Below are positions 31,102 to 54,571 of a DNA stretch of 64,000 nt, piece after piece. Made by a program: the position numbers and the translations under genes. The stretch is from an uncultured Bacilli bacterium (GTDB lineage: Bacteria > Bacillota_I > Bacilli_A > RF39 > UBA660), in NCBI GenBank assembly GCA_949451605.1, contig CASTSB010000005.1, positions 1,096-65,095 of the forward strand. Reading direction: 5' to 3'. How positions within the stretch are numbered: position 1 is the stretch's first letter; every line of letters starts with the position of its first letter. Below the pieces are notes generated by a model. The model saw only the letters and a list, made by a program, of their open reading frames with translations, did not search any database and was not told the origin of the DNA.

Positions 31102-31248
31102 TTACCAGTTAGTAAAACTTCCTCCAAGGATAATAGCTAGTAAGATATATAAAATAATGATTATTAAGAATCCATTATTTCCTCTATTACTATTACAGCA
31201 AGAAGTTGTTACTGTAGTACATGGATTTTCATTACAATTACAAGTCAA
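31102..31248 (-). CDS. YjcZ-like tiny Cys-rich sporulation membrane peptide (TTG start)
   Basis: RBS gggaggtga then TTG. Peptide TCNCNENPCTTVTTSCCNSNRGNNGFLIIIILYILLAIILGGSFTNW resembles the tiny_TM_bacill / YjcZ family. Confidence 0.45.
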   Translation of the reverse strand: MTCNCNENPCTTVTTSCCNSNRGNNGFLIIIILYILLAIILGGSFTNW

Positions 31249-31262
31249 CTGACTCACCTCCC

Positions 31263-31343
31263 TTAAATATAAGCACCTAAGATAATTATTAAAAGAATAA
31301 ATAATACTAAAATGATAGCTGAAGATGATACGCAATTATTCAT
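31263..31343 (-). CDS. YjcZ-like tiny sporulation membrane peptide
   Basis: RBS aaaggagg 7 nt upstream of ATG. MNNCVSSSAIILVLFILLIIILGAYI compares with GGGFALIVVLFILLIIVG of YjcZ-type peptides. Confidence 0.45.
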   Translation of the reverse strand: MNNCVSSSAIILVLFILLIIILGAYI

Positions 31344-46856: not shown

Positions 46857-48164
46857 CTAAAAAGGCATCTTAAAATTTCCATTACTCATTTGTTTCATCA
46901 TTTTTTTCATTTGATCAAATTGTTGAAGTAATTTATTAACCTCTTGTACAGAAGTACCTGATCCTTTAGCAATTCTAGTCTTTCTACTAGCCTTAATAAT
47001 ATCAGGATTTCTTCTTTCTTTAGGAGTCATTGATAAAACAATAGCTTCTACATGAGCCATTTGTTTTGGATCAATCTTTACATCATTAAGTCCCATCTTC
47101 TTCGCACCTGGAAGTAACTTTAATAAATTCTCAAGAGGCCCAAGTTTTTTCATTTGCTTCATTGTATCTAAAAAATCTTCTAAATCAAATTTACCTTCTT
47201 GCATTCTCTTAGCAGTTTTCTCAGCAGCTTTTTCATCTATTGATTCAGTAGCTTTTTCAACAAGAGATACTATATCACCCATACCAAGAATTCTACCAGC
47301 CATTCTTTCAGGATCAAATAATTCTAATCCATCTAACTTTTCACTAATACCCATAAATTTAATCGGTACATTAGTTAAATGTCTAACAGATAGTGCGACA
47401 CCTCCACGAGTATCACCATCTAGTTTAGTTAATACAACTCCAGTTAGAGGAAGTTTATCATTAAAACCTGTTATAACATTAATAGAATCTTGACCCATCA
47501 TAGAATCAATTACTAATAATATTTCATCAGGATTAATACTAGTTCTAATATTTTCTAATTCATCCATCAATTCTTCATCGATATGAAGTCTACCAGCTGT
47601 ATCAATAAGTACATAATCAAATTTATTTTCTTTAGCATAATTTAATGCATTATTAACTATTTCAACAGGATCTTTCTTACCCTCTTCATAAACTTCGATA
47701 TTTAATTGTTTTCCCAATTGTTTTAATTGGTCAATAGCAGCAGGTCTATAAACATCACAAGCTACAAGTAAAGGCTTTTTACTATGTTTTTTTCTTAAAA
47801 ATTGAGCAATTTTAGCAATTGTTGTAGTTTTACCTGAACCTTGTAAACCAACTAACATTAAAGTAGCAGGATTCCCTTTTAAATTAAGAGGAGCATTTTC
47901 TCCACCTAATAATTCAGTAAGTTCATCTTTTACAATTTTTACAAACAAGTCTCCTGGATTAATACTACTAGCAACTTCACTACCTAAAGCTTTCTCTTTT
48001 ACAGTATTAGTAAATTCCTTTACAACTTTATAGTTAACATCTGCTTCAAGTAAGGCTAAACGTATCTCTCTCATCATTTCAGAGATATTATCTTCTGTAA
48101 TTTTTCCATATCCTTTTATTTTATGTAAAGCGTTTTGTAATCTATCTCCTAAACTTTCAAACAT
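46857..48164 (-). CDS. ffh: signal recognition particle protein Ffh
   Basis: GLQGSGKTTT, DTAGR, TKLDG GTPase motifs; Met-rich M domain. Likely start is ATG at 48164 (RBS aggtga) rather than the GTG at 48173. Confidence 0.95.
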   Translation of the reverse strand: MFESLGDRLQNALHKIKGYGKITEDNISEMMREIRLALLEADVNYKVVKEFTNTVKEKALGSEVASSINPGDLFVKIVKDELTELLGGENAPLNLKGNPATLMLVGLQGSGKTTTIAKIAQFLRKKHSKKPLLVACDVYRPAAIDQLKQLGKQLNIEVYEEGKKDPVEIVNNALNYAKENKFDYVLIDTAGRLHIDEELMDELENIRTSINPDEILLVIDSMMGQDSINVITGFNDKLPLTGVVLTKLDGDTRGGVALSVRHLTNVPIKFMGISEKLDGLELFDPERMAGRILGMGDIVSLVEKATESIDEKAAEKTAKRMQEGKFDLEDFLDTMKQMKKLGPLENLLKLLPGAKKMGLNDVKIDPKQMAHVEAIVLSMTPKERRNPDIIKASRKTRIAKGSGTSVQEVNKLLQQFDQMKKMMKQMSNGNFKMPF

Positions 48165-48175
48165 TCTTATCACCT

Positions 48176-48225
48176 GCTTCCTATTATATCAATTAAACAT
48201 TTAAAAATAAAGAAAAAGGCAATAT
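48176..48225 (-). promoter_or_regulatory. candidate sigma-A promoter for ffh
   Basis: Extended -10 TGaTATAAT on the minus strand at 48183..48191, about 12 nt before the RBS. Confidence 0.3.
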
Positions 48226-48400
48226 ATTTATATAAAGATTCATACGAAAAAAATATTAATTACTATTTTTTACTATTTTGCTATTTCTCTATTGTATTTT
48301 TTTTAGATGTACTTTATACTGTGAATAGAGATTTTATCTAAGACAAAGTTAGGTGATACCTCCACGAAACTTGAAATATGGTTTTAAGGAGGTGATTCTT

Positions 48401-48508
48401 ATGCAGAGACTATTATTTCTTACAAAATGCATAAATACTTTTTATGGAGTATTTAATAATAGGTTTTGCTATATTAGTAGTTATTCTACTAATGATTATA
48501 GCAGTTAA
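48401..48508 (+). CDS. small ORF (35 aa) with near-perfect RBS inside the element
   Basis: aaggaggtgattcttATG; MQRLLFLTKCINTFYGVFNNRFCYISSYSTNDYSS. Confidence 0.3.
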   Translation: MQRLLFLTKCINTFYGVFNNRFCYISSYSTNDYSS

Positions 48509-48515
48509 AAAATAA
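48444..48515 (+). CDS. alternative-frame 23-aa hydrophobic peptide (type-I-toxin-like)
   Basis: MEYLIIGFAILVVILLMIIAVKK. No SD. A 15-bp-stem hairpin (48532..48565) lies 17 nt downstream. Confidence 0.2.
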   Translation: MEYLIIGFAILVVILLMIIAVKK

Positions 48516-48880
48516 CGTTAAAGCAAAAGAAAGACACCTAACTTCAGCCATGAAGTAAGGTGTCTACACAAAAAAATATTGTGGAGATAATACCTAACGA
48601 GCAAAAATTAGATAAAATCTCTTTTATATTTTATGCAAAAAACATAAAATAATACATTTCTAATTAAGAAATAACTCTTATTATATAAGGCTATTCTTAA
48701 AAAGTCAACAAACAAACGGAACGAACAAAGTTTAAAACATCAGCTAGTAAACTACTACCGTTCTAACTTAATTATAGCTATGTCAACTAAAAATTTCAAC
48801 TGTTATTTTAATAATAAATATGAAAATTTCAATAAATTGTATTTAACTATAAAGAAAAAGAGCTATAACTCTTTTCTTTT

Positions 48881-51055
48881 TTATTTTTGATCAACAAGTG
48901 TTACAAGTGGTCTTGGTGGAGCTACTACAACTTCTGGTTGTACAGGAGCACTTGGCATTTCATTAACATTTGTGCTTGGATTTAAATTAGTTTGCTGATT
49001 ACCACCAAATAAAACCTTATCTAATTCTGAAGAATTATTATCTTCAAAACTATTTTCAAAATCATCATCTTCATCTAAATCAAGTTTAGGTAATGAATTT
49101 TGATTTGTAGTTACATTAGATATTATATCTTCCATCGAAGTTTGATTATTAATGTCGTTAACTGGAGTCTCCATTTCAGGAATTGCCTCAATTCCTGCAT
49201 TTACATTCTTCTTAGTAGCAGTCATATAGTCATAATCACTTACTTTTGGAACTACAGGTGCTGGCTCTGCTACCTTTTCTTCTTCATAAATTTCTCCAGG
49301 TGCACGCCCATTCCAAATAGTAACAACGTCTACATTACCACTCCATGGAGCTGGATTTGGCATTTCCATTTTTACAATTAAAGGAATTTTAAAAGCTGTA
49401 CCAAAACCTAAACAAGTACCAGATTGTAAAGACTTCTGTTTTTCTACTATTTCATCACTAATATTTGGAACCATTTTTCTAATATATTCAACATCTACTG
49501 GATGGTTCATTTTAAATATTAAGAAATTCATACATTGAGAAATACATGTATCACTCATTTCACTTGGTCTTTGCGAAATAAGTCCAAGTAAAACTCCATA
49601 TTTACGACCTTCTTTAGCAATACGTTCAAATATATTATATCCAATCAAAAACCTATCTGTATCATTTTGAATATATCTATGAGCTTCTTCAACAACAACA
49701 TGGAAAGGAATACTACCTCTTTGTTGTAAACCCTTAGCAAATTCAAATACAAGTCTTGAATAAATCTTAGTAATTACCTTAGCAAAATCATCATCTACAT
49801 CATCTAAATTAATATTTACAATTTGATACTTAGTACCATTATCAATAATTAAAGATGACAAGTAAGATTCAAGTGGTGTATAAGTATCATATTCAAAGAA
49901 TTTAGCATATTTTCCAACTATTAATGAATGAAGTCTTACTTTAATAGTAATAGCATCACCATAAGTATTCGCATTTCTTAACCATCCTTCACTAATTAAT
50001 GCAAAGTTTAAAGCTTTCTCTAAAGTATCTAAATCATAATAAACATCTTCTTTTGGCTCATAACTATCTAGTTCACTCTTAATAAATGAAGAAATATATT
50101 CAGTAAGTAAAACACTTTCAGTAAATTGTCCTGAATTATCTATTAAGAAACAATCTCTAAATTTTCTTGTATATCCAATTCCTTGAACTGGTGCTTCCAA
50201 ATTAAACTGTGGAGTTGAACAACTAGCTAAAATTGAAAATACTTCATTTCTCTTATTAGGAGAAGTCTCATTAGTATACAAAATAGTCATAATAGCTTTT
50301 GCGATTAAATGGTTCATATATTGATTAGCATCCATTCCTTCTTGTGAAAAGATAAGTGCTAACTTTTGCATTCTTTCAATTAAAGGAAGCTGAGAATGAT
50401 TGGTACATTGTAATAATAGTGCTAAATCATCTTTATTTAATAAATAAATTGGTAATCTTAATTTTTCACCTAAATTATCTGACTCATTAGTACTAAAGAA
50501 ACGGTAATGATAATTATTATCAATTTTATTTAAATCTTTGAAAGCATTATAATACTCTCCAGATGAATCAAATAGTAATATATTTGCTTTATAAGGAAAT
50601 AATCTCTTATCTAAAAACATATTTTGAAAAAGTCTTGAAATACCACAAGATTTACCAGAACCTGAATTACCAAATATGGCAAAATGTCCTCCAAAGAAAT
50701 TATTAACATCTAAATAAGCAGGTAAATTATTATAGAAAGGACTAACTCCTAAAGGCATATAACCTTTTTCATTCTTACCTGTAATCATTGGAATTTCTGC
50801 TGGCTCTATTACTCTTACACTAGCATCAAGAGAAGGTTTACGAAGAGTTCCACCAATTAAATTTCCATTTACTATCTCACCCAAAAATCTAGCTTTAACT
50901 AACTCTCCATCTAAATTATCAACTTCCGCTAAAATCTTTTTATCCTTATCTTCAAAAACCAAATGCAAATTCATTAAGTTAATTGTCAAATGTTCTGCAT
51001 CTTTTAACTTAATGTTTGCATAATGATCACCGATATAAACTATTCTATCAAACAC
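48881..51055 (-). CDS. DUF87/HerA-FtsK-like P-loop ATPase with disordered acidic, Pro-rich C-terminal tail
   Basis: Walker A FGNSGSGKSCG, Walker B HVVVEEAHRY, and a C-terminal E/P/N-rich low-complexity region of about 150 aa. Confidence 0.65.
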   Translation of the reverse strand: MFDRIVYIGDHYANIKLKDAEHLTINLMNLHLVFEDKDKKILAEVDNLDGELVKARFLGEIVNGNLIGGTLRKPSLDASVRVIEPAEIPMITGKNEKGYMPLGVSPFYNNLPAYLDVNNFFGGHFAIFGNSGSGKSCGISRLFQNMFLDKRLFPYKANILLFDSSGEYYNAFKDLNKIDNNYHYRFFSTNESDNLGEKLRLPIYLLNKDDLALLLQCTNHSQLPLIERMQKLALIFSQEGMDANQYMNHLIAKAIMTILYTNETSPNKRNEVFSILASCSTPQFNLEAPVQGIGYTRKFRDCFLIDNSGQFTESVLLTEYISSFIKSELDSYEPKEDVYYDLDTLEKALNFALISEGWLRNANTYGDAITIKVRLHSLIVGKYAKFFEYDTYTPLESYLSSLIIDNGTKYQIVNINLDDVDDDFAKVITKIYSRLVFEFAKGLQQRGSIPFHVVVEEAHRYIQNDTDRFLIGYNIFERIAKEGRKYGVLLGLISQRPSEMSDTCISQCMNFLIFKMNHPVDVEYIRKMVPNISDEIVEKQKSLQSGTCLGFGTAFKIPLIVKMEMPNPAPWSGNVDVVTIWNGRAPGEIYEEEKVAEPAPVVPKVSDYDYMTATKKNVNAGIEAIPEMETPVNDINNQTSMEDIISNVTTNQNSLPKLDLDEDDDFENSFEDNNSSELDKVLFGGNQQTNLNPSTNVNEMPSAPVQPEVVVAPPRPLVTLVDQK

Positions 51056-51190: not shown

Positions 51191-51925
51191 TCAAAATTTT
51201 AACTTTATAACTATTTTTTTTAAAATAAAACAAACGCCTACCCCAACAAATATTAAACTTACAATTTGATTACAAGATAAAAAAATATTAATATGACTTG
51301 CTCTTAAATATTCTAGTAAGAATTTAGATAATCCACATAAAATAAAAGCAAAGCCAATAATATAATCTTTATTTTTTTCTTTCTTTATTAAAAAAGATAA
51401 ATAAACAAATATTAATATAAATACAAATGCCTCCAATAATTGTATTGGAAATAAACTTTCTCCTTTAGGAGCACTTAAAGAATAATTATAAATAACTTTA
51501 AAAATGCCATTATATTTTATACCATAGCAACATCCTGATAAAAAACACCCTATCTTACCAATCCCATACATTAAAGGAATAGATGTAACTAGTAAATATA
51601 TTAAATCCTTATATTTTATTTTAAACTGCTTACTATAAATAAATAGCACTATTAAAATACCAATAACTGCTCCATAAGAGGAAAGACCAAGTTTAAAAAA
51701 ATCAAATACACCTTTAAATTTTTCATAATTTGTATAATAAGTATAGTATTTTGCCCCAATAATTGCTCCTAAAGCAATATATATTAAAAGCGCATATACT
51801 TTTTCATTTTCTAAAATGACTTTTTTAGCATTAAAATAAACAACTAATAATCCTAAAATAACTCCTATAATAATACAAAATCCATACAAAGTAAGATCAA
51901 CATTAAACATTATATAACACCACAA
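51191..51925 (-). CDS. Lgt-family-like membrane protein with divergent signature
   Basis: YGIGKIGCFLSGCCYG in place of the Lgt signature YGLGRIGNFINGELWG. Seven hydrophobic helices. Confidence 0.45.
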   Translation of the reverse strand: MWCYIMFNVDLTLYGFCIIIGVILGLLVVYFNAKKVILENEKVYALLIYIALGAIIGAKYYTYYTNYEKFKGVFDFFKLGLSSYGAVIGILIVLFIYSKQFKIKYKDLIYLLVTSIPLMYGIGKIGCFLSGCCYGIKYNGIFKVIYNYSLSAPKGESLFPIQLLEAFVFILIFVYLSFLIKKEKNKDYIIGFAFILCGLSKFLLEYLRASHINIFLSCNQIVSLIFVGVGVCFILKKIVIKLKF

Positions 51926-52305
51926 CTTTTTAAAAATTGAAATGTAATTATCATAACTAGACCAATAAAATAAAGAAAAATTATTAATAAAATACTACAA
52001 ATAGTTCTTACATGTTTATTTTTTTTATATTTTATAACTCCACCTATACTTAAACTTAATAAAGCATAAATTAAAAAAGGAATTATTTCTTCCAATACAC
52101 CTGTAAAAAGACAAATTAATAAAATAGCCATTAAAAGAAAGATAAAATTTACATAATTATTTCCTTCTTTTAAAGACGCTTTTGCTTTTTCAACATCAAT
52201 TCGTTCCTCAAAAATTTCTACTCCACAATTAGGACAGACTTTTATATTGTCAATGGCTAGTTTTTCTCCACAATTTCTACAATAATTATTCATAATCTTC
52301 TTCAC
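51910..52305 (-). CDS. zinc-ribbon membrane protein
   Basis: CRNCGEKL...CPNCGVEI then three TM helices. Confidence 0.45.
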   Translation of the reverse strand: MKKIMNNYCRNCGEKLAIDNIKVCPNCGVEIFEERIDVEKAKASLKEGNNYVNFIFLLMAILLICLFTGVLEEIIPFLIYALLSLSIGGVIKYKKNKHVRTICSILLIIFLYFIGLVMIITFQFLKSCGVI

Positions 52306-52861
52306 CTACTTCATCTTCAGAATATGAATTTAAATCTTCTTGTTTCTTATCTTTTCCATAAATATTTTTACCCTCTACAGCATAATATTGATTATTTTTC
52401 TCAACAACTGTAATTATATGATCAATCCCATCAATTTCAACATTAAAATAATAAGATTTACAATCATTTTCATATTTATATTCTTCGCACATACCACCAT
52501 CACATCCCATAACAGGATCAGCTTTACAATTACCAGATTTTATACACTGTCCAGAAGAATCATACTTAATTTCATATTCAAATACATTAGGCATTTTCTT
52601 TATATATGGAACAACATACTCTTTTTTCAATTTATAGATAAATATTTGATACATCCCTTCTTTTACTAAAAAGAAACCTAAAACAAAAATAAAAATTATT
52701 AAAAAACAATTTCTTATTACTCTATTTTTTTCTTTTTCCGCAGGAGTTTTATAATTATAAGGAATATCAACTACGGGAGTATTACATTTATTACACACAA
52801 AATCATCTTTTAGTAATTTATTTCCACAATTAGTACAGTAATTATTCATATTTAACACCAC
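52286..52861 (-). CDS. zinc-ribbon / TM / Cys-rich extracellular-domain protein
   Basis: CTNCGNKL...CNKCNT, TM helix, CIKSGNCKADPVMGCDGGMCEEY. Confidence 0.45.
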   Translation of the reverse strand: MVLNMNNYCTNCGNKLLKDDFVCNKCNTPVVDIPYNYKTPAEKEKNRVIRNCFLIIFIFVLGFFLVKEGMYQIFIYKLKKEYVVPYIKKMPNVFEYEIKYDSSGQCIKSGNCKADPVMGCDGGMCEEYKYENDCKSYYFNVEIDGIDHIITVVEKNNQYYAVEGKNIYGKDKKQEDLNSYSEDEVGEEDYE

Positions 52862-52910
52862 TCTTTATTATCTATAAGTATAACAAAAAAAAATAGATAT
52901 CGCTATCTAT

Positions 52911-53204
52911 TTAAATTAATTCTTCTAACTCTTCTTTTAATTTTTTATCACTTATTAAAGAAGCAATTTCAATAAGTCTTTCTCTTTTCTTTTTTAATTC
53001 TAATTTTGTTTCAAATTCTTCTAGCTTTTCTTTTGTTATTTTTAATTGTTTAAATATAGCATTTCTACTTACAGAATATTTATCAGCCATCTCTGAAAAG
53101 CTTAAGTTCATAAAATAATAATCTTCAAAATATTCTTTCTGCTTTTCAGTAAGAAGCTTTGAATATAAATCATACAATTCATTATAGTAAAGTACTTCTT
53201 CCAT
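52911..53204 (-). CDS. ylxM: YlxM/UPF0122 SRP-associated HTH protein
   Basis: YYFMNLSFSEMADKYSVSRNAIFKQLK sigma-70 region-4-like HTH. Adjacent to ftsY. Confidence 0.7.
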   Translation of the reverse strand: MEEVLYYNELYDLYSKLLTEKQKEYFEDYYFMNLSFSEMADKYSVSRNAIFKQLKITKEKLEEFETKLELKKKRERLIEIASLISDKKLKEELEELI

Positions 53205-53205
53205 A

Positions 53206-53478
53206 CTACACCCCCAAAAATGATAAAATAGTATTTAATAACACTACAACACCAAGTAAAAAATAAATGACAGTAAAATATTTTCTTTTATAGATTAAAT
53301 GATTATTAATTCCCATAGAAATCAAAGAAAGTCCTAAAAAAAGTTCAACATATATAACTATGCTTTGATTAAAGAAAAACCATATTAATAAAATTATCGT
53401 AACAATGGTAAAAAACAACTGCAAATCTACAAAGAATATATTCTTATTATTAATTTTACTTTTATCTTTATCTTTCAT
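53206..53478 (-). CDS. small two-TM membrane protein
   Basis: 90-aa ORF, two hydrophobic helices. Confidence 0.35.
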   Translation of the reverse strand: MKDKDKSKINNKNIFFVDLQLFFTIVTIILLIWFFFNQSIVIYVELFLGLSLISMGINNHLIYKRKYFTVIYFLLGVVVLLNTILSFLGV

Positions 53479-53485
53479 AATTCAC

Positions 53486-54571
53486 CTACATCATATCTTT
53501 AAATAAACCATAGATATATTTTTCTATATCAAATACTTGAAGATCATCTTTTGTCTCACCAAGTCCAATATACTTAACAGGCAAACTAACATCTTCTTTT
53601 ATCGCTAGTACTATACCACCTTTAGCAGTACCATCAAGTTTTGTTAAAACAATACCAGTTATATTTGTTATTTCTTTAAAAGCCTTCGCTTGACTAATTC
53701 CATTTTGACCAGTAGTAGCATCAATAACAAGTAAAGTTTCACTTGCGCCACCTTCAACTAAAGAATCAATAACTTTATTCATTTTTTCCAATTCTTTCAT
53801 TAGATTAACTTTATTTTGAAGTCTACCTGCTGTATCAATTAATACAACATCATAACTATCATCTTGAGCTACTTTAATACCATCAAACACAACACTTGCA
53901 GGATCTGAACCTTCTTCTTTACCATAGAATCCTACATCAATTTTTTTGCTCCACTCTTTTAATTGTTGAACAGCTCCTGCTCTAAAAGTATCAGCTCCAA
54001 CTAAAAGAACCTTCTTTCCTTCACCCTTCATCTTATTTGCAAGTTTTCCAATTGTTGTAGTTTTACCAACACCATTAACGCCTACAAACAAAATAACAGT
54101 TGGACCATTTTCTCTATAATTTATCTTACTAGATAATACTTCATCATTTACATAAATAATAAACAATTCATCTACAATAATTTCTTTTAATTCTTCAGGA
54201 TCCGTTAAATTTTCATGACGAACTCTATCTCTAATTCTATCCATAAAGTTCATAACAGTATTAACACCAATATCTGCCATAATAAGTATTTCTTCTAACT
54301 CTTCAAAATACTCTTCATTTACTTTACTATATTTTGAAGTAAGAGAAGCAAGCTTTGATACAAATCCTTGTCTTGATTTAGTTAAACCTTTTTCATATAC
54401 TTTAACACTACTTTTGTTTGTATCATCCTTTTTTATATCATTATTTGAAGTGTTAATAGACGCATCCGCTGAATTGTTCTCACTATCTTCAACCTTTAAA
54501 ACAGTATCAGTTTCTTCAACTTCCTTCTTAAACATATTTCTAATTTTGTTAAATAAACCCATTATAATCAC
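53486..54571 (-). CDS. ftsY: SRP receptor FtsY
   Basis: GVNGVGKTTTIGKLA, DTAGR, TKLDGTAKGG. Confidence 0.9.
   Translation of the reverse strand: MIIMGLFNKIRNMFKKEVEETDTVLKVEDSENNSADASINTSNNDIKKDDTNKSSVKVYEKGLTKSRQGFVSKLASLTSKYSKVNEEYFEELEEILIMADIGVNTVMNFMDRIRDRVRHENLTDPEELKEIIVDELFIIYVNDEVLSSKINYRENGPTVILFVGVNGVGKTTTIGKLANKMKGEGKKVLLVGADTFRAGAVQQLKEWSKKIDVGFYGKEEGSDPASVVFDGIKVAQDDSYDVVLIDTAGRLQNKVNLMKELEKMNKVIDSLVEGGASETLLVIDATTGQNGISQAKAFKEITNITGIVLTKLDGTAKGGIVLAIKEDVSLPVKYIGLGETKDDLQVFDIEKYIYGLFKDMM

Follow-up and report, generated by a model that had tools for sequence, protein, structure and literature searches.

A strain-variable cassette between ffh and a DUF87 ATPase gene of an uncultured Bacilli bacterium with the layout of a candidate type I toxin-antitoxin module

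The toxins of type I toxin-antitoxin systems share a small size, a single membrane helix and cationic residues at the C-terminus (PMC8309996), and the recognition determinants of their mRNAs comprise pairing of the Shine-Dalgarno (SD) sequence with an anti-SD, a long-distance interaction that joins the 5' end to the 3' end, and terminal stem-loops (PMC6733600, PMC8594479). Type I families are narrowly distributed and poorly detected by homology (PMC5367252, PMC8594479). In bsrG/SR4 of Bacillus subtilis, the antitoxin binds the 3' end of the toxin mRNA, triggers its cleavage by RNase III and tightens the sequestration of the SD (PMC8309996). This system, along with txpA/RatA, bsrE/SR5 and yonT/SR6, presents the closest layout to the locus described here, a 294-bp element bounded by inverted repeats (48328-48621) in the spacer between ffh and a DUF87 ATPase gene. 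The element lies within a 64-kb stretch of contig CASTSB010000005.1 from an uncultured Bacilli bacterium, which we refer to as the window.

The locus resembles the bsrG/SR4 group in the convergent arrangement of its two putative genes, whose RNAs would overlap at their 3' ends (here by ~110 nt), in the length of the mRNA (~300 nt) and of the antisense RNA (100-200 nt), in a small hydrophobic peptide with a cationic C-terminus (38 aa in BsrG, 23 aa here) and in its location on horizontally acquired DNA. Unlike that group, it consists of a bare 650-bp insertion instead of part of a prophage, its hydrophobic frame is not the one led by the SD, and the predicted coupling involves a 3' arm that would compete with the SD for the anti-SD. 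There is no sequence similarity between them.

This locus is a candidate type I module: it combines a predicted, tightly folded mRNA of ~300 nt with SD/anti-SD pairing and a long-distance helix, an open reading frame (ORF) for a helical peptide with a KK end, a predicted convergent overlap of ~110 nt and strain-variable DNA, which jointly serve to recognize type I loci (PMC6733600, PMC8309996, PMC8594479). We put at about 0.5 the probability that the 294-bp element is the body of a small plus-strand mRNA (~48328-48634), carried on an accessory cassette of ~650 bp and facing a convergent antisense RNA of ~150 nt (~48673 to 48522), and that the two make up a type I toxin-antitoxin module in which the RNAs overlap at their 3' ends. 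The features that an earlier note had reported for this element proved to lie far beyond chance, and the interpretation that it gave them is partly supported.

The spacer, which had been described as about 700 bp without a sizeable ORF, spans 716 bp and holds no ORF longer than 51 aa, according to the sequence and the ORF list. Its borders and the cassette that it contains are defined by the following features:

46857..48164, minus strand: ffh, starting at the ATG at 48164, with the exact protein on record.
48881..51055, minus strand: DUF87 ATPase gene.
48219..48860, no strand assigned: strain-variable insertion (cassette) of ~640-650 bp, absent from near-identical strains.
48199..48218, no strand assigned: right copy of an imperfect 20-nt direct repeat, ATTTAAAAATAAAGAAAAAG (family D1, 90% identity, spacing 642).
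48841..48860, no strand assigned: left copy of the 20-nt direct repeat, which in the filled allele serves as tail to the DUF87 terminator.
48857..48874, no strand assigned: DUF87 terminator hairpin AAAGAGCTATAACTCTTT, flanked on either side by T-rich runs, as read from the sequence.

We compared this region with 80, and later 95, related loci; sequences sharing its 90% DUF87 protein cluster supplied the alleles of close strains. Of the 80 loci, 40 have DUF87 immediately upstream of ffh, and 28 of those 40 have a spacer of no more than 126 bp (18-126 bp, mostly 50-75), the two genes overlapping in one locus. These short spacers are made up of a terminator hairpin tailed by TTTTTCTTT, together with an AGGTGAT SD and an extended -10 box (TGnTATAAT), so that a terminator analogous to that of DUF87 is present in relatives at the same position. 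Four close-strain alleles (L082-L085) have a spacer of 68 bp, against 716 bp here, their flanks sharing 98.5% and 99.5% identity with the window, and three others (L093-L095) likewise present an empty site with a 68-bp spacer. The 716-bp spacer recurs with 100% identity in five filled alleles (L088-L092), which come from four Logan sequencing runs and JGI 3300006217; samples with the filled allele include SRR32520750, SRR32520742 and SRR24860768. The cassette is hence an insertion polymorphism, carried by only some strains, as is usual for toxin-antitoxin cassettes.

In the alignment of filled and empty alleles, divergence begins right after the DUF87 stop codon (48880) and homology is regained at about 48219-48232 (48228 against the empty alleles with a 68-bp spacer). 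The insertion thus extends beyond the inverted repeats at 48328 and 48621, by about 100 bp on one side and 240-260 bp on the other, so that the element bounded by those repeats is not itself the inserted unit. Consistent with this, the 20-nt direct repeat flanks a unit of 642 bp, not the 294-bp element. Its right copy constitutes, in ffh orientation, a T-rich terminator tail (CTTTTTCTTTAT...) that is present in the empty allele too.

The DUF87-ffh spacer is a hotspot for accessory DNA also beyond these strains, with other relatives holding unrelated ordinary genes there (L086 2343-3224, L087, L022, L054, L072, L075, L028 and L046). Their cargo includes a different gene, encoding 293 aa and without a Pfam match, at the same position in L086 and L087, an ORF with an N-terminus resembling lactate dehydrogenase, and large secreted proteins. 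At the ffh-proximal junction, the T-rich TTTTTCTTT tail is often kept in relatives.

The filled alleles also carry a population signal. The spacer shows 0 differences in four samples besides that of the window. Three of the filled alleles (L089-L091), which match the window at all 716 spacer positions, carry 29 differences in the neighboring 1.15 kb of DUF87 (48896-50033) and 9 in the first 330 bp of ffh (47838-48096). A local divergence of ~2.5% would predict some 18 differences in 716 bp, and the locus-wide value of 0.5% would predict ~4. Many of these flanking differences are held in common with empty alleles, and position 48886 differs only in empty alleles. The cassette and the last few codons of DUF87 are therefore identical on flanking haplotypes that differ, from which we infer that the cassette has recently spread by homologous recombination, through transfer or a sweep.

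Within DUF87, differences with respect to both empty- and filled-site strains are concentrated in the 3' half (48896-50033), with almost none further upstream, and the C-terminal tail varies among cluster members, yielding products of 709, 718, 724 or 738 aa. This clustering suggests either a recombination tract or a fast-evolving low-complexity tail.

The architecture of the putative plus-strand transcript is outlined by the following features:

48292..48320, plus strand: promoter-like site TTGTAT-17 nt-TATACT, with 8/12 consensus bases, as read from the sequence.
48328..48634, plus strand: predicted mRNA of ~307 nt, the candidate toxin mRNA, with paired 5' and 3' ends in the fold.
48328..48365, plus strand: 5' arm of the long-distance helix, holding the anti-SD UACCUCC (48357-48363), from the repeat search and the folds.
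48386..48395, plus strand: SD AAGGAGGTGA, paired with 48357-48363 in the minimum-energy structure.
48581..48621, plus strand: 3' arm of the long-distance helix, in which 48581-48598 can pair with the anti-SD region, freeing the SD, and 48608-48621 closes the outer helix.

The imperfect inverted repeats are as initially described, their outer 14 nt being perfectly complementary: a first segment of 18 nt (48324-48341 with 48608-48625) is 94% complementary, and a second of 25 nt (48348-48372 with 48574-48598) is 76% complementary. A search for two 12-nt arms lying 251-281 nt apart returned this single match in the window, with 0.00 expected from 100 shuffles. The 294-nt element folds with -92.9 kcal/mol (z = -9.6) on the plus strand. 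In the fold of the longer RNA spanning 48328-48634, at -94.1 kcal/mol, the probability that the outer 14-bp helix is closed is about 1. The promoter-like site would start transcription at about 48327-48328, where the 5' repeat arm has its first base. Past its 3' arm the RNA continues with CUCUUUUAUAUUUUAU, with a U tract near 48621-48634. It is hence most likely that the inverted repeats represent the two termini, paired with each other, of a small and tightly folded mRNA. The alternative of a structured RNA whose ends pair, raised in the earlier note, is compatible with this reading, since the paired ends would be those of the mRNA. Upstream of the promoter-like site (48219-48291) there are short direct repeats, with TACTATTTT occurring twice and followed by GCTATTTCTCTATTG, which could constitute an UP element or a regulator-binding site.

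Folding further points to two alternative states of the SD. When the anti-SD is forced onto the 3' arm (48581-48587), the energy is -94.0 kcal/mol, against -94.1 kcal/mol for the minimum-energy structure; this conformer accounts for 25% of the ensemble, and in it the SD is only weakly paired. The probability of the SD being unpaired is 0.08 in the full-length RNA and falls to 0.00 upon blocking of 48524-48634, which mimics binding of the antisense RNA, or upon truncation of the mRNA at the hairpin. The SD-open conformer is thus abolished in silico whenever 48524-48634 is unavailable. Sequestration of the SD and/or a 5'-3' long-distance interaction, which serve as a criterion for type I mRNAs, are found here in silico only.

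The opposite strand presents the elements of a putative convergent transcript:

48680..48708, minus strand: predicted antisense promoter TTGACT-17 nt-TATAAT, with 11/12 consensus bases, from the promoter scan.
48771..48799, minus strand: second promoter-like site TTGAAA-17 nt-TATAAT, also 11/12, which would give an antisense form of ~240 nt.
48522..48673, minus strand: predicted antisense small RNA of ~150 nt, folded into five hairpins and proposed as the candidate antitoxin; its complement in the mRNA is 48522-48634.
48532..48565, minus strand: intrinsic terminator with a 15-bp stem containing one mismatch, followed by UUUCUUUUGCUUU, from the repeat search and the fold.

The 150-nt RNA folds with -46.6 kcal/mol (z = -9.1), the minimum-energy structure making up 15% of the ensemble, and reading of its sequence shows no ORF longer than 8 aa. 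The extra 5' segment of the ~240-nt form has no significant fold (z = -0.3). The hairpin at 48532..48565 was confirmed as previously described, with 15-nt arms that are 93% complementary, a 4-nt loop and a free energy of -19.1 kcal/mol (z = -5.0). A simple terminator scan did not flag it, in our reading because its internal mismatch breaks the stem criteria of the scan. The U tract UUUCUUUUGCUUU occurs on the minus strand only, the plus strand reading on as ACACAAAAAAA, and the hairpin is therefore not a shared terminator. The earlier proposal of a convergent pair formed by a toxin mRNA and an antisense RNA hence finds support for the layout, with its predicted 11/12 promoter, terminator, 150-nt RNA and sequestered SD, and fails for the common terminator. 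The plus-strand RNA would have to read through the hairpin to reach the closing helix and the U tract near 48621-48634; read-through beyond these might also stop at the DUF87 terminator hairpin (48857..48874).

Taken together, these predictions outline a putative mechanism. The mRNA would be made with its SD locked by the upstream anti-SD. Once the 3' end is complete, the two ends would pair, and the 3' arm (48581-48598) would compete with the SD for the anti-SD, yielding a switch that would be ~75% off and 25% on. By pairing with the last ~110 nt of the mRNA, the antisense RNA would remove this competitor, so that the SD would stay buried, and the long mRNA/antisense duplex could also become a substrate of RNase III. 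The relevant product would be the hydrophobic membrane peptide with a KK end, which is here out of frame with the sole SD-led ORF. The predicted switch would act in the same direction as in bsrG/SR4, as judged from folding only.

Other type I systems share parts of this anatomy. In hok/Sok and aapA/IsoA, as predicted here, the ends of the full-length mRNA are paired and the SD is masked by an anti-SD (PMC6733600). In those systems, however, the long-distance helix keeps the mRNA inert and trimming of the 3' end activates it, whereas here, in silico, the SD remains fully buried after truncation at the hairpin; their antisense RNA targets the 5' region instead of covering the 3' end, and their hosts are Proteobacteria and Epsilonproteobacteria and not a Firmicute. 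The par locus of Enterococcus faecalis (fst RNA I / RNA II) and SprG/SprF of Staphylococcus aureus likewise involve convergent toxin and antisense RNAs in Firmicutes, without homology to the cassette. The shared terminator of par is truly bidirectional, unlike the hairpin described here, which terminates one strand. SprG1 uses one frame for two peptides, of 44 and of 31 aa (PMC8309996), which resemble a hypothetical pair of 37 and 23 aa at this locus, although both starts are in frame in SprG1 and a +1 difference separates them here.

The coding potential of the mRNA rests on two small frames and the run of T between them:

48401..48508, plus strand: ORF A, 35 aa, MQRLLFLTKCINTFYGVFNNRFCYISSYSTNDYSS, the sole frame served by the SD; not hydrophobic.
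48444..48515, plus strand: ORF B, 23 aa, MEYLIIGFAILVVILLMIIAVKK, with one predicted membrane helix and a KK end; no SD, +1 frame with respect to ORF A.
48439..48443, plus strand: T5 run just before the second ATG; removal of one T fuses ORF A and ORF B.

The SD AAGGAGGTGA is the strongest ribosome-binding site in the window and its sole copy in 64 kb, where 0.04 are expected, and it is separated by 5 nt from the ATG at 48401, in agreement with the near-consensus SD that had been noted ahead of a 35-aa ORF. ORF B reaches a mean Kyte-Doolittle value of 3.46 over its best 17 residues and has the size (below 60 aa), helix and cationic C-terminus that serve as a criterion for type I toxins (PMC8309996). 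Among random 716-bp sequences with the same composition, 0.3% contain an ORF of such hydrophobicity. The proposed resemblance of this frame to a type I toxin therefore stands for its hydrophobicity and its KK end; its translation is another matter, the SD serving ORF A at a +1 shift.

The frame of ORF B is closed upstream by a stop at 48432-48434. Deletion of one T from the T5 run would instead generate an SD-led peptide of 37 aa, MQRLLFLTKCINTFMEYLIIGFAILVVILLMIIAVKK, equivalent to MQRLLFLTKCINTF-MEYLIIGFAILVVILLMIIAVKK. Five assemblies, which stem from at least four samples, share this run unchanged, and this rules out a sequencing or assembly error. The most likely reading is a real frameshift mutation in this allele, and since the hydrophobic peptide is out of frame with the SD-led ORF, the toxin would most likely be disabled by a 1-nt insertion or produced at trace level only. 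Programmed +1 slippage on UUU_U is formally possible. Inspection by eye for stimulators of +1 frameshifting found no SD-like element upstream, and the next codon is UAU (Tyr), not a stop; we presume that UAU is not rare in this AT-rich genome. We regard as very unlikely a type I toxin kept deliberately out of frame, in which the membrane peptide would be reached only by a rare +1 shift from ORF A at the U5 run (ACU UUU U|AUG) and its output would be gated by both the antisense-controlled SD switch and low-frequency frameshifting, even though selection for such an arrangement would fit an intact and identical cassette on different haplotypes.

We searched for homologs of the peptides, the RNAs and the cassette. 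With Rfam, no hit reached the gathering score across the whole window, and 48150-48900 returned only matches with E > 4 (at E up to 10), so that the covariance-model scan proposed in the earlier note yielded nothing credible. Pfam and NCBIfam returned only noise for both peptides (E >= 0.09), with no match to a known type I toxin family (Fst/Ldr, TxpA/BsrG, Hok, Ibs, ShoB, TisB and others). A fused construct of 53 aa found no match in a protein database, and a HMMER search of ORF A against 1.84 billion proteins gave three matches, all of them long repetitive low-complexity proteins and not homologs. Neither blastn in distant mode with the cassette nor tblastn with the fused peptide matched anything in phage and plasmid collections. 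The two-arm repeat pattern, which does match the window, had 0 matches in viral and metagenome contigs, as did degenerate peptide patterns allowing any hydrophobic codon. Searches of the element and the cassette with blastn and nhmmer against the related loci and the rest of the window recovered same-lineage copies only. A full-text literature search found no paper linking type I toxins to RF39.

Small hydrophobic ORFs led by an SD were also surveyed across all loci, which yielded almost only YjcZ_2-like pairs plus two unrelated singletons, none related to the 23-aa peptide. The peptide did not match YjcZ_2 (PF09680) at E up to 10, nor did BLASTP align it to the window's own member of this family. 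The latter belongs to a tandem of SD-led genes for tiny membrane proteins: 31263..31343(-) encodes 26 aa, MNNCVSSSAIILVLFILLIIILGAYI, and matches YjcZ_2 at the gathering score (E = 2.4e-4), and 31102..31248(-) encodes ~48 aa, rich in Cys and Asn and with a TTG start, with a match below the gathering score (E = 2.8e-3). The pair is kept in L007, L020, L022, L027, L029, L033 and L048.

Several observations weigh against a type I module. The minus strand of the element folds nearly as well as the plus strand (-85.9 kcal/mol, z = -8.3), so that folding does not tell which strand matters. With 8/12 consensus bases, the plus-strand promoter falls below the cut-off of 9/12 used in the promoter scan, and the plus-strand RNA lacks a canonical terminator, the local hairpin that its 3' arm can alternatively adopt having only -9.8 kcal/mol (z = -2.1). 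In addition, the peptide that the SD does serve is not toxin-like, and ORF B departs from the type I expectation of a toxin ORF served by an SD. Much of ORF B, furthermore, coincides with a palindromic hairpin made of NTA-type codons, and a purely structural origin of its hydrophobic frame is possible. Finally, no homolog of the peptide, the RNAs or the cassette emerged from the databases searched.

A rival reading is a locus of non-coding RNA without any toxin, in which the 150-nt minus-strand RNA would act on other targets and/or the plus strand would yield a structured RNA, the ORFs being by-products of AU-rich hairpins. We hold this to be less likely than the type I module, but a serious possibility. 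It would account for the exceptional folds on both strands, for hydrophobic frames arising without coding selection from NTA-type codons, and for two ORFs that are mutually out of frame and devoid of homologs. It hardly explains a perfect SD of 10 nt that is ideally spaced from an ATG and precisely masked by an anti-SD, nor the 0.3% chance of a hydrophobic ORF with a KK end, and no Rfam family supports it. Two specific types of RNA element were rejected: there is no downstream gene on the plus strand for a known riboswitch or leader, and no reverse transcriptase for a retron.

The same anatomy would suit any tightly repressed small gene, and tiny membrane proteins are common in this lineage, the YjcZ_2 pair at 31102-31343 being an example. 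It is nonetheless unlikely that the locus is a gene under antisense control whose product is a membrane or regulatory peptide of small size, acting neither in addiction nor in defence: the 23-aa peptide matches neither YjcZ_2 nor any other family, and the combination of SD sequestration, a long-distance helix and a convergent antisense RNA on an accessory insertion is a specific signature of type I systems.

It is improbable, too, that the cassette is an inert remnant of imported DNA in which these signals are coincidental. Such an origin would agree with an orphan sequence and with the frameshift in its toxin-like frame, but it must reckon with the coincidence of several independently improbable features and with the lack of a single substitution in the cassette across haplotypes that differ by ~2.5% next to it.

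Although its size and its terminal inverted repeats of 14-36 nt, with a perfect 14-nt core, recall MITEs and small repeats such as Correia, RUP and bcr1, the suggestion that the 294-bp element is a non-autonomous transposon of this kind is scarcely credible, given that the actual insertion of ~650 bp does not end at the repeats, that no target duplication flanks them and the flanking bases extend their complementarity (pair I4), and that the element is single-copy, with no second copy in the window (other matches carry 2 mismatches, at chance level), the 95 related loci, viral and metagenome contigs, phages or plasmids.

With regard to the neighborhood of the cassette, the relatives of the window's Ffh (up to 91% identity) stem from uncultured gut and rumen Bacilli, such as 'Clostridium sp. 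CAG:710' and 'CAG:302', which we take to represent the RF39 group. The ORF list opens ffh at a GTG at 48173, which gives 438 aa, but the gene truly starts at the ATG at 48164, behind the motif AGGTGAT; the resulting 435-aa product is on record on 6 contigs, the 438-aa form not being on record. The usual ylxM(UPF0122)-ffh pair is split in this lineage by four genes, namely a 187-aa ORF, a 127-aa ORF with a weak NinF match, lgt and DUF87 (window about 51191-54000(-), viewed via loci L082 and L088), and ftsY lies just upstream. A few kb downstream of ffh starts a 2051-aa RHS-repeat / YD-shell gene of the polymorphic-toxin type (window about 43027 downward (-), viewed via L081 9138-9308), preceded by a 179-aa protein with a Gp10_C domain.

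As an orphan candidate of a known class, possibly with a frameshifted toxin, the cassette is plausible but unproven, and it would still represent one more instance of a well-known class, possibly disabled. If real, it would give the RF39-like Bacilli, uncultured inhabitants of gut and rumen with reduced genomes, a candidate type I toxin-antitoxin module. Its predicted logic, in which an antisense RNA directed at the 3' end would remove the competitor for the anti-SD, is testable. The presence/absence polymorphism and the identical copy on divergent flanks would, in turn, clearly illustrate in nature how a tiny RNA-based cassette spreads through recombination.

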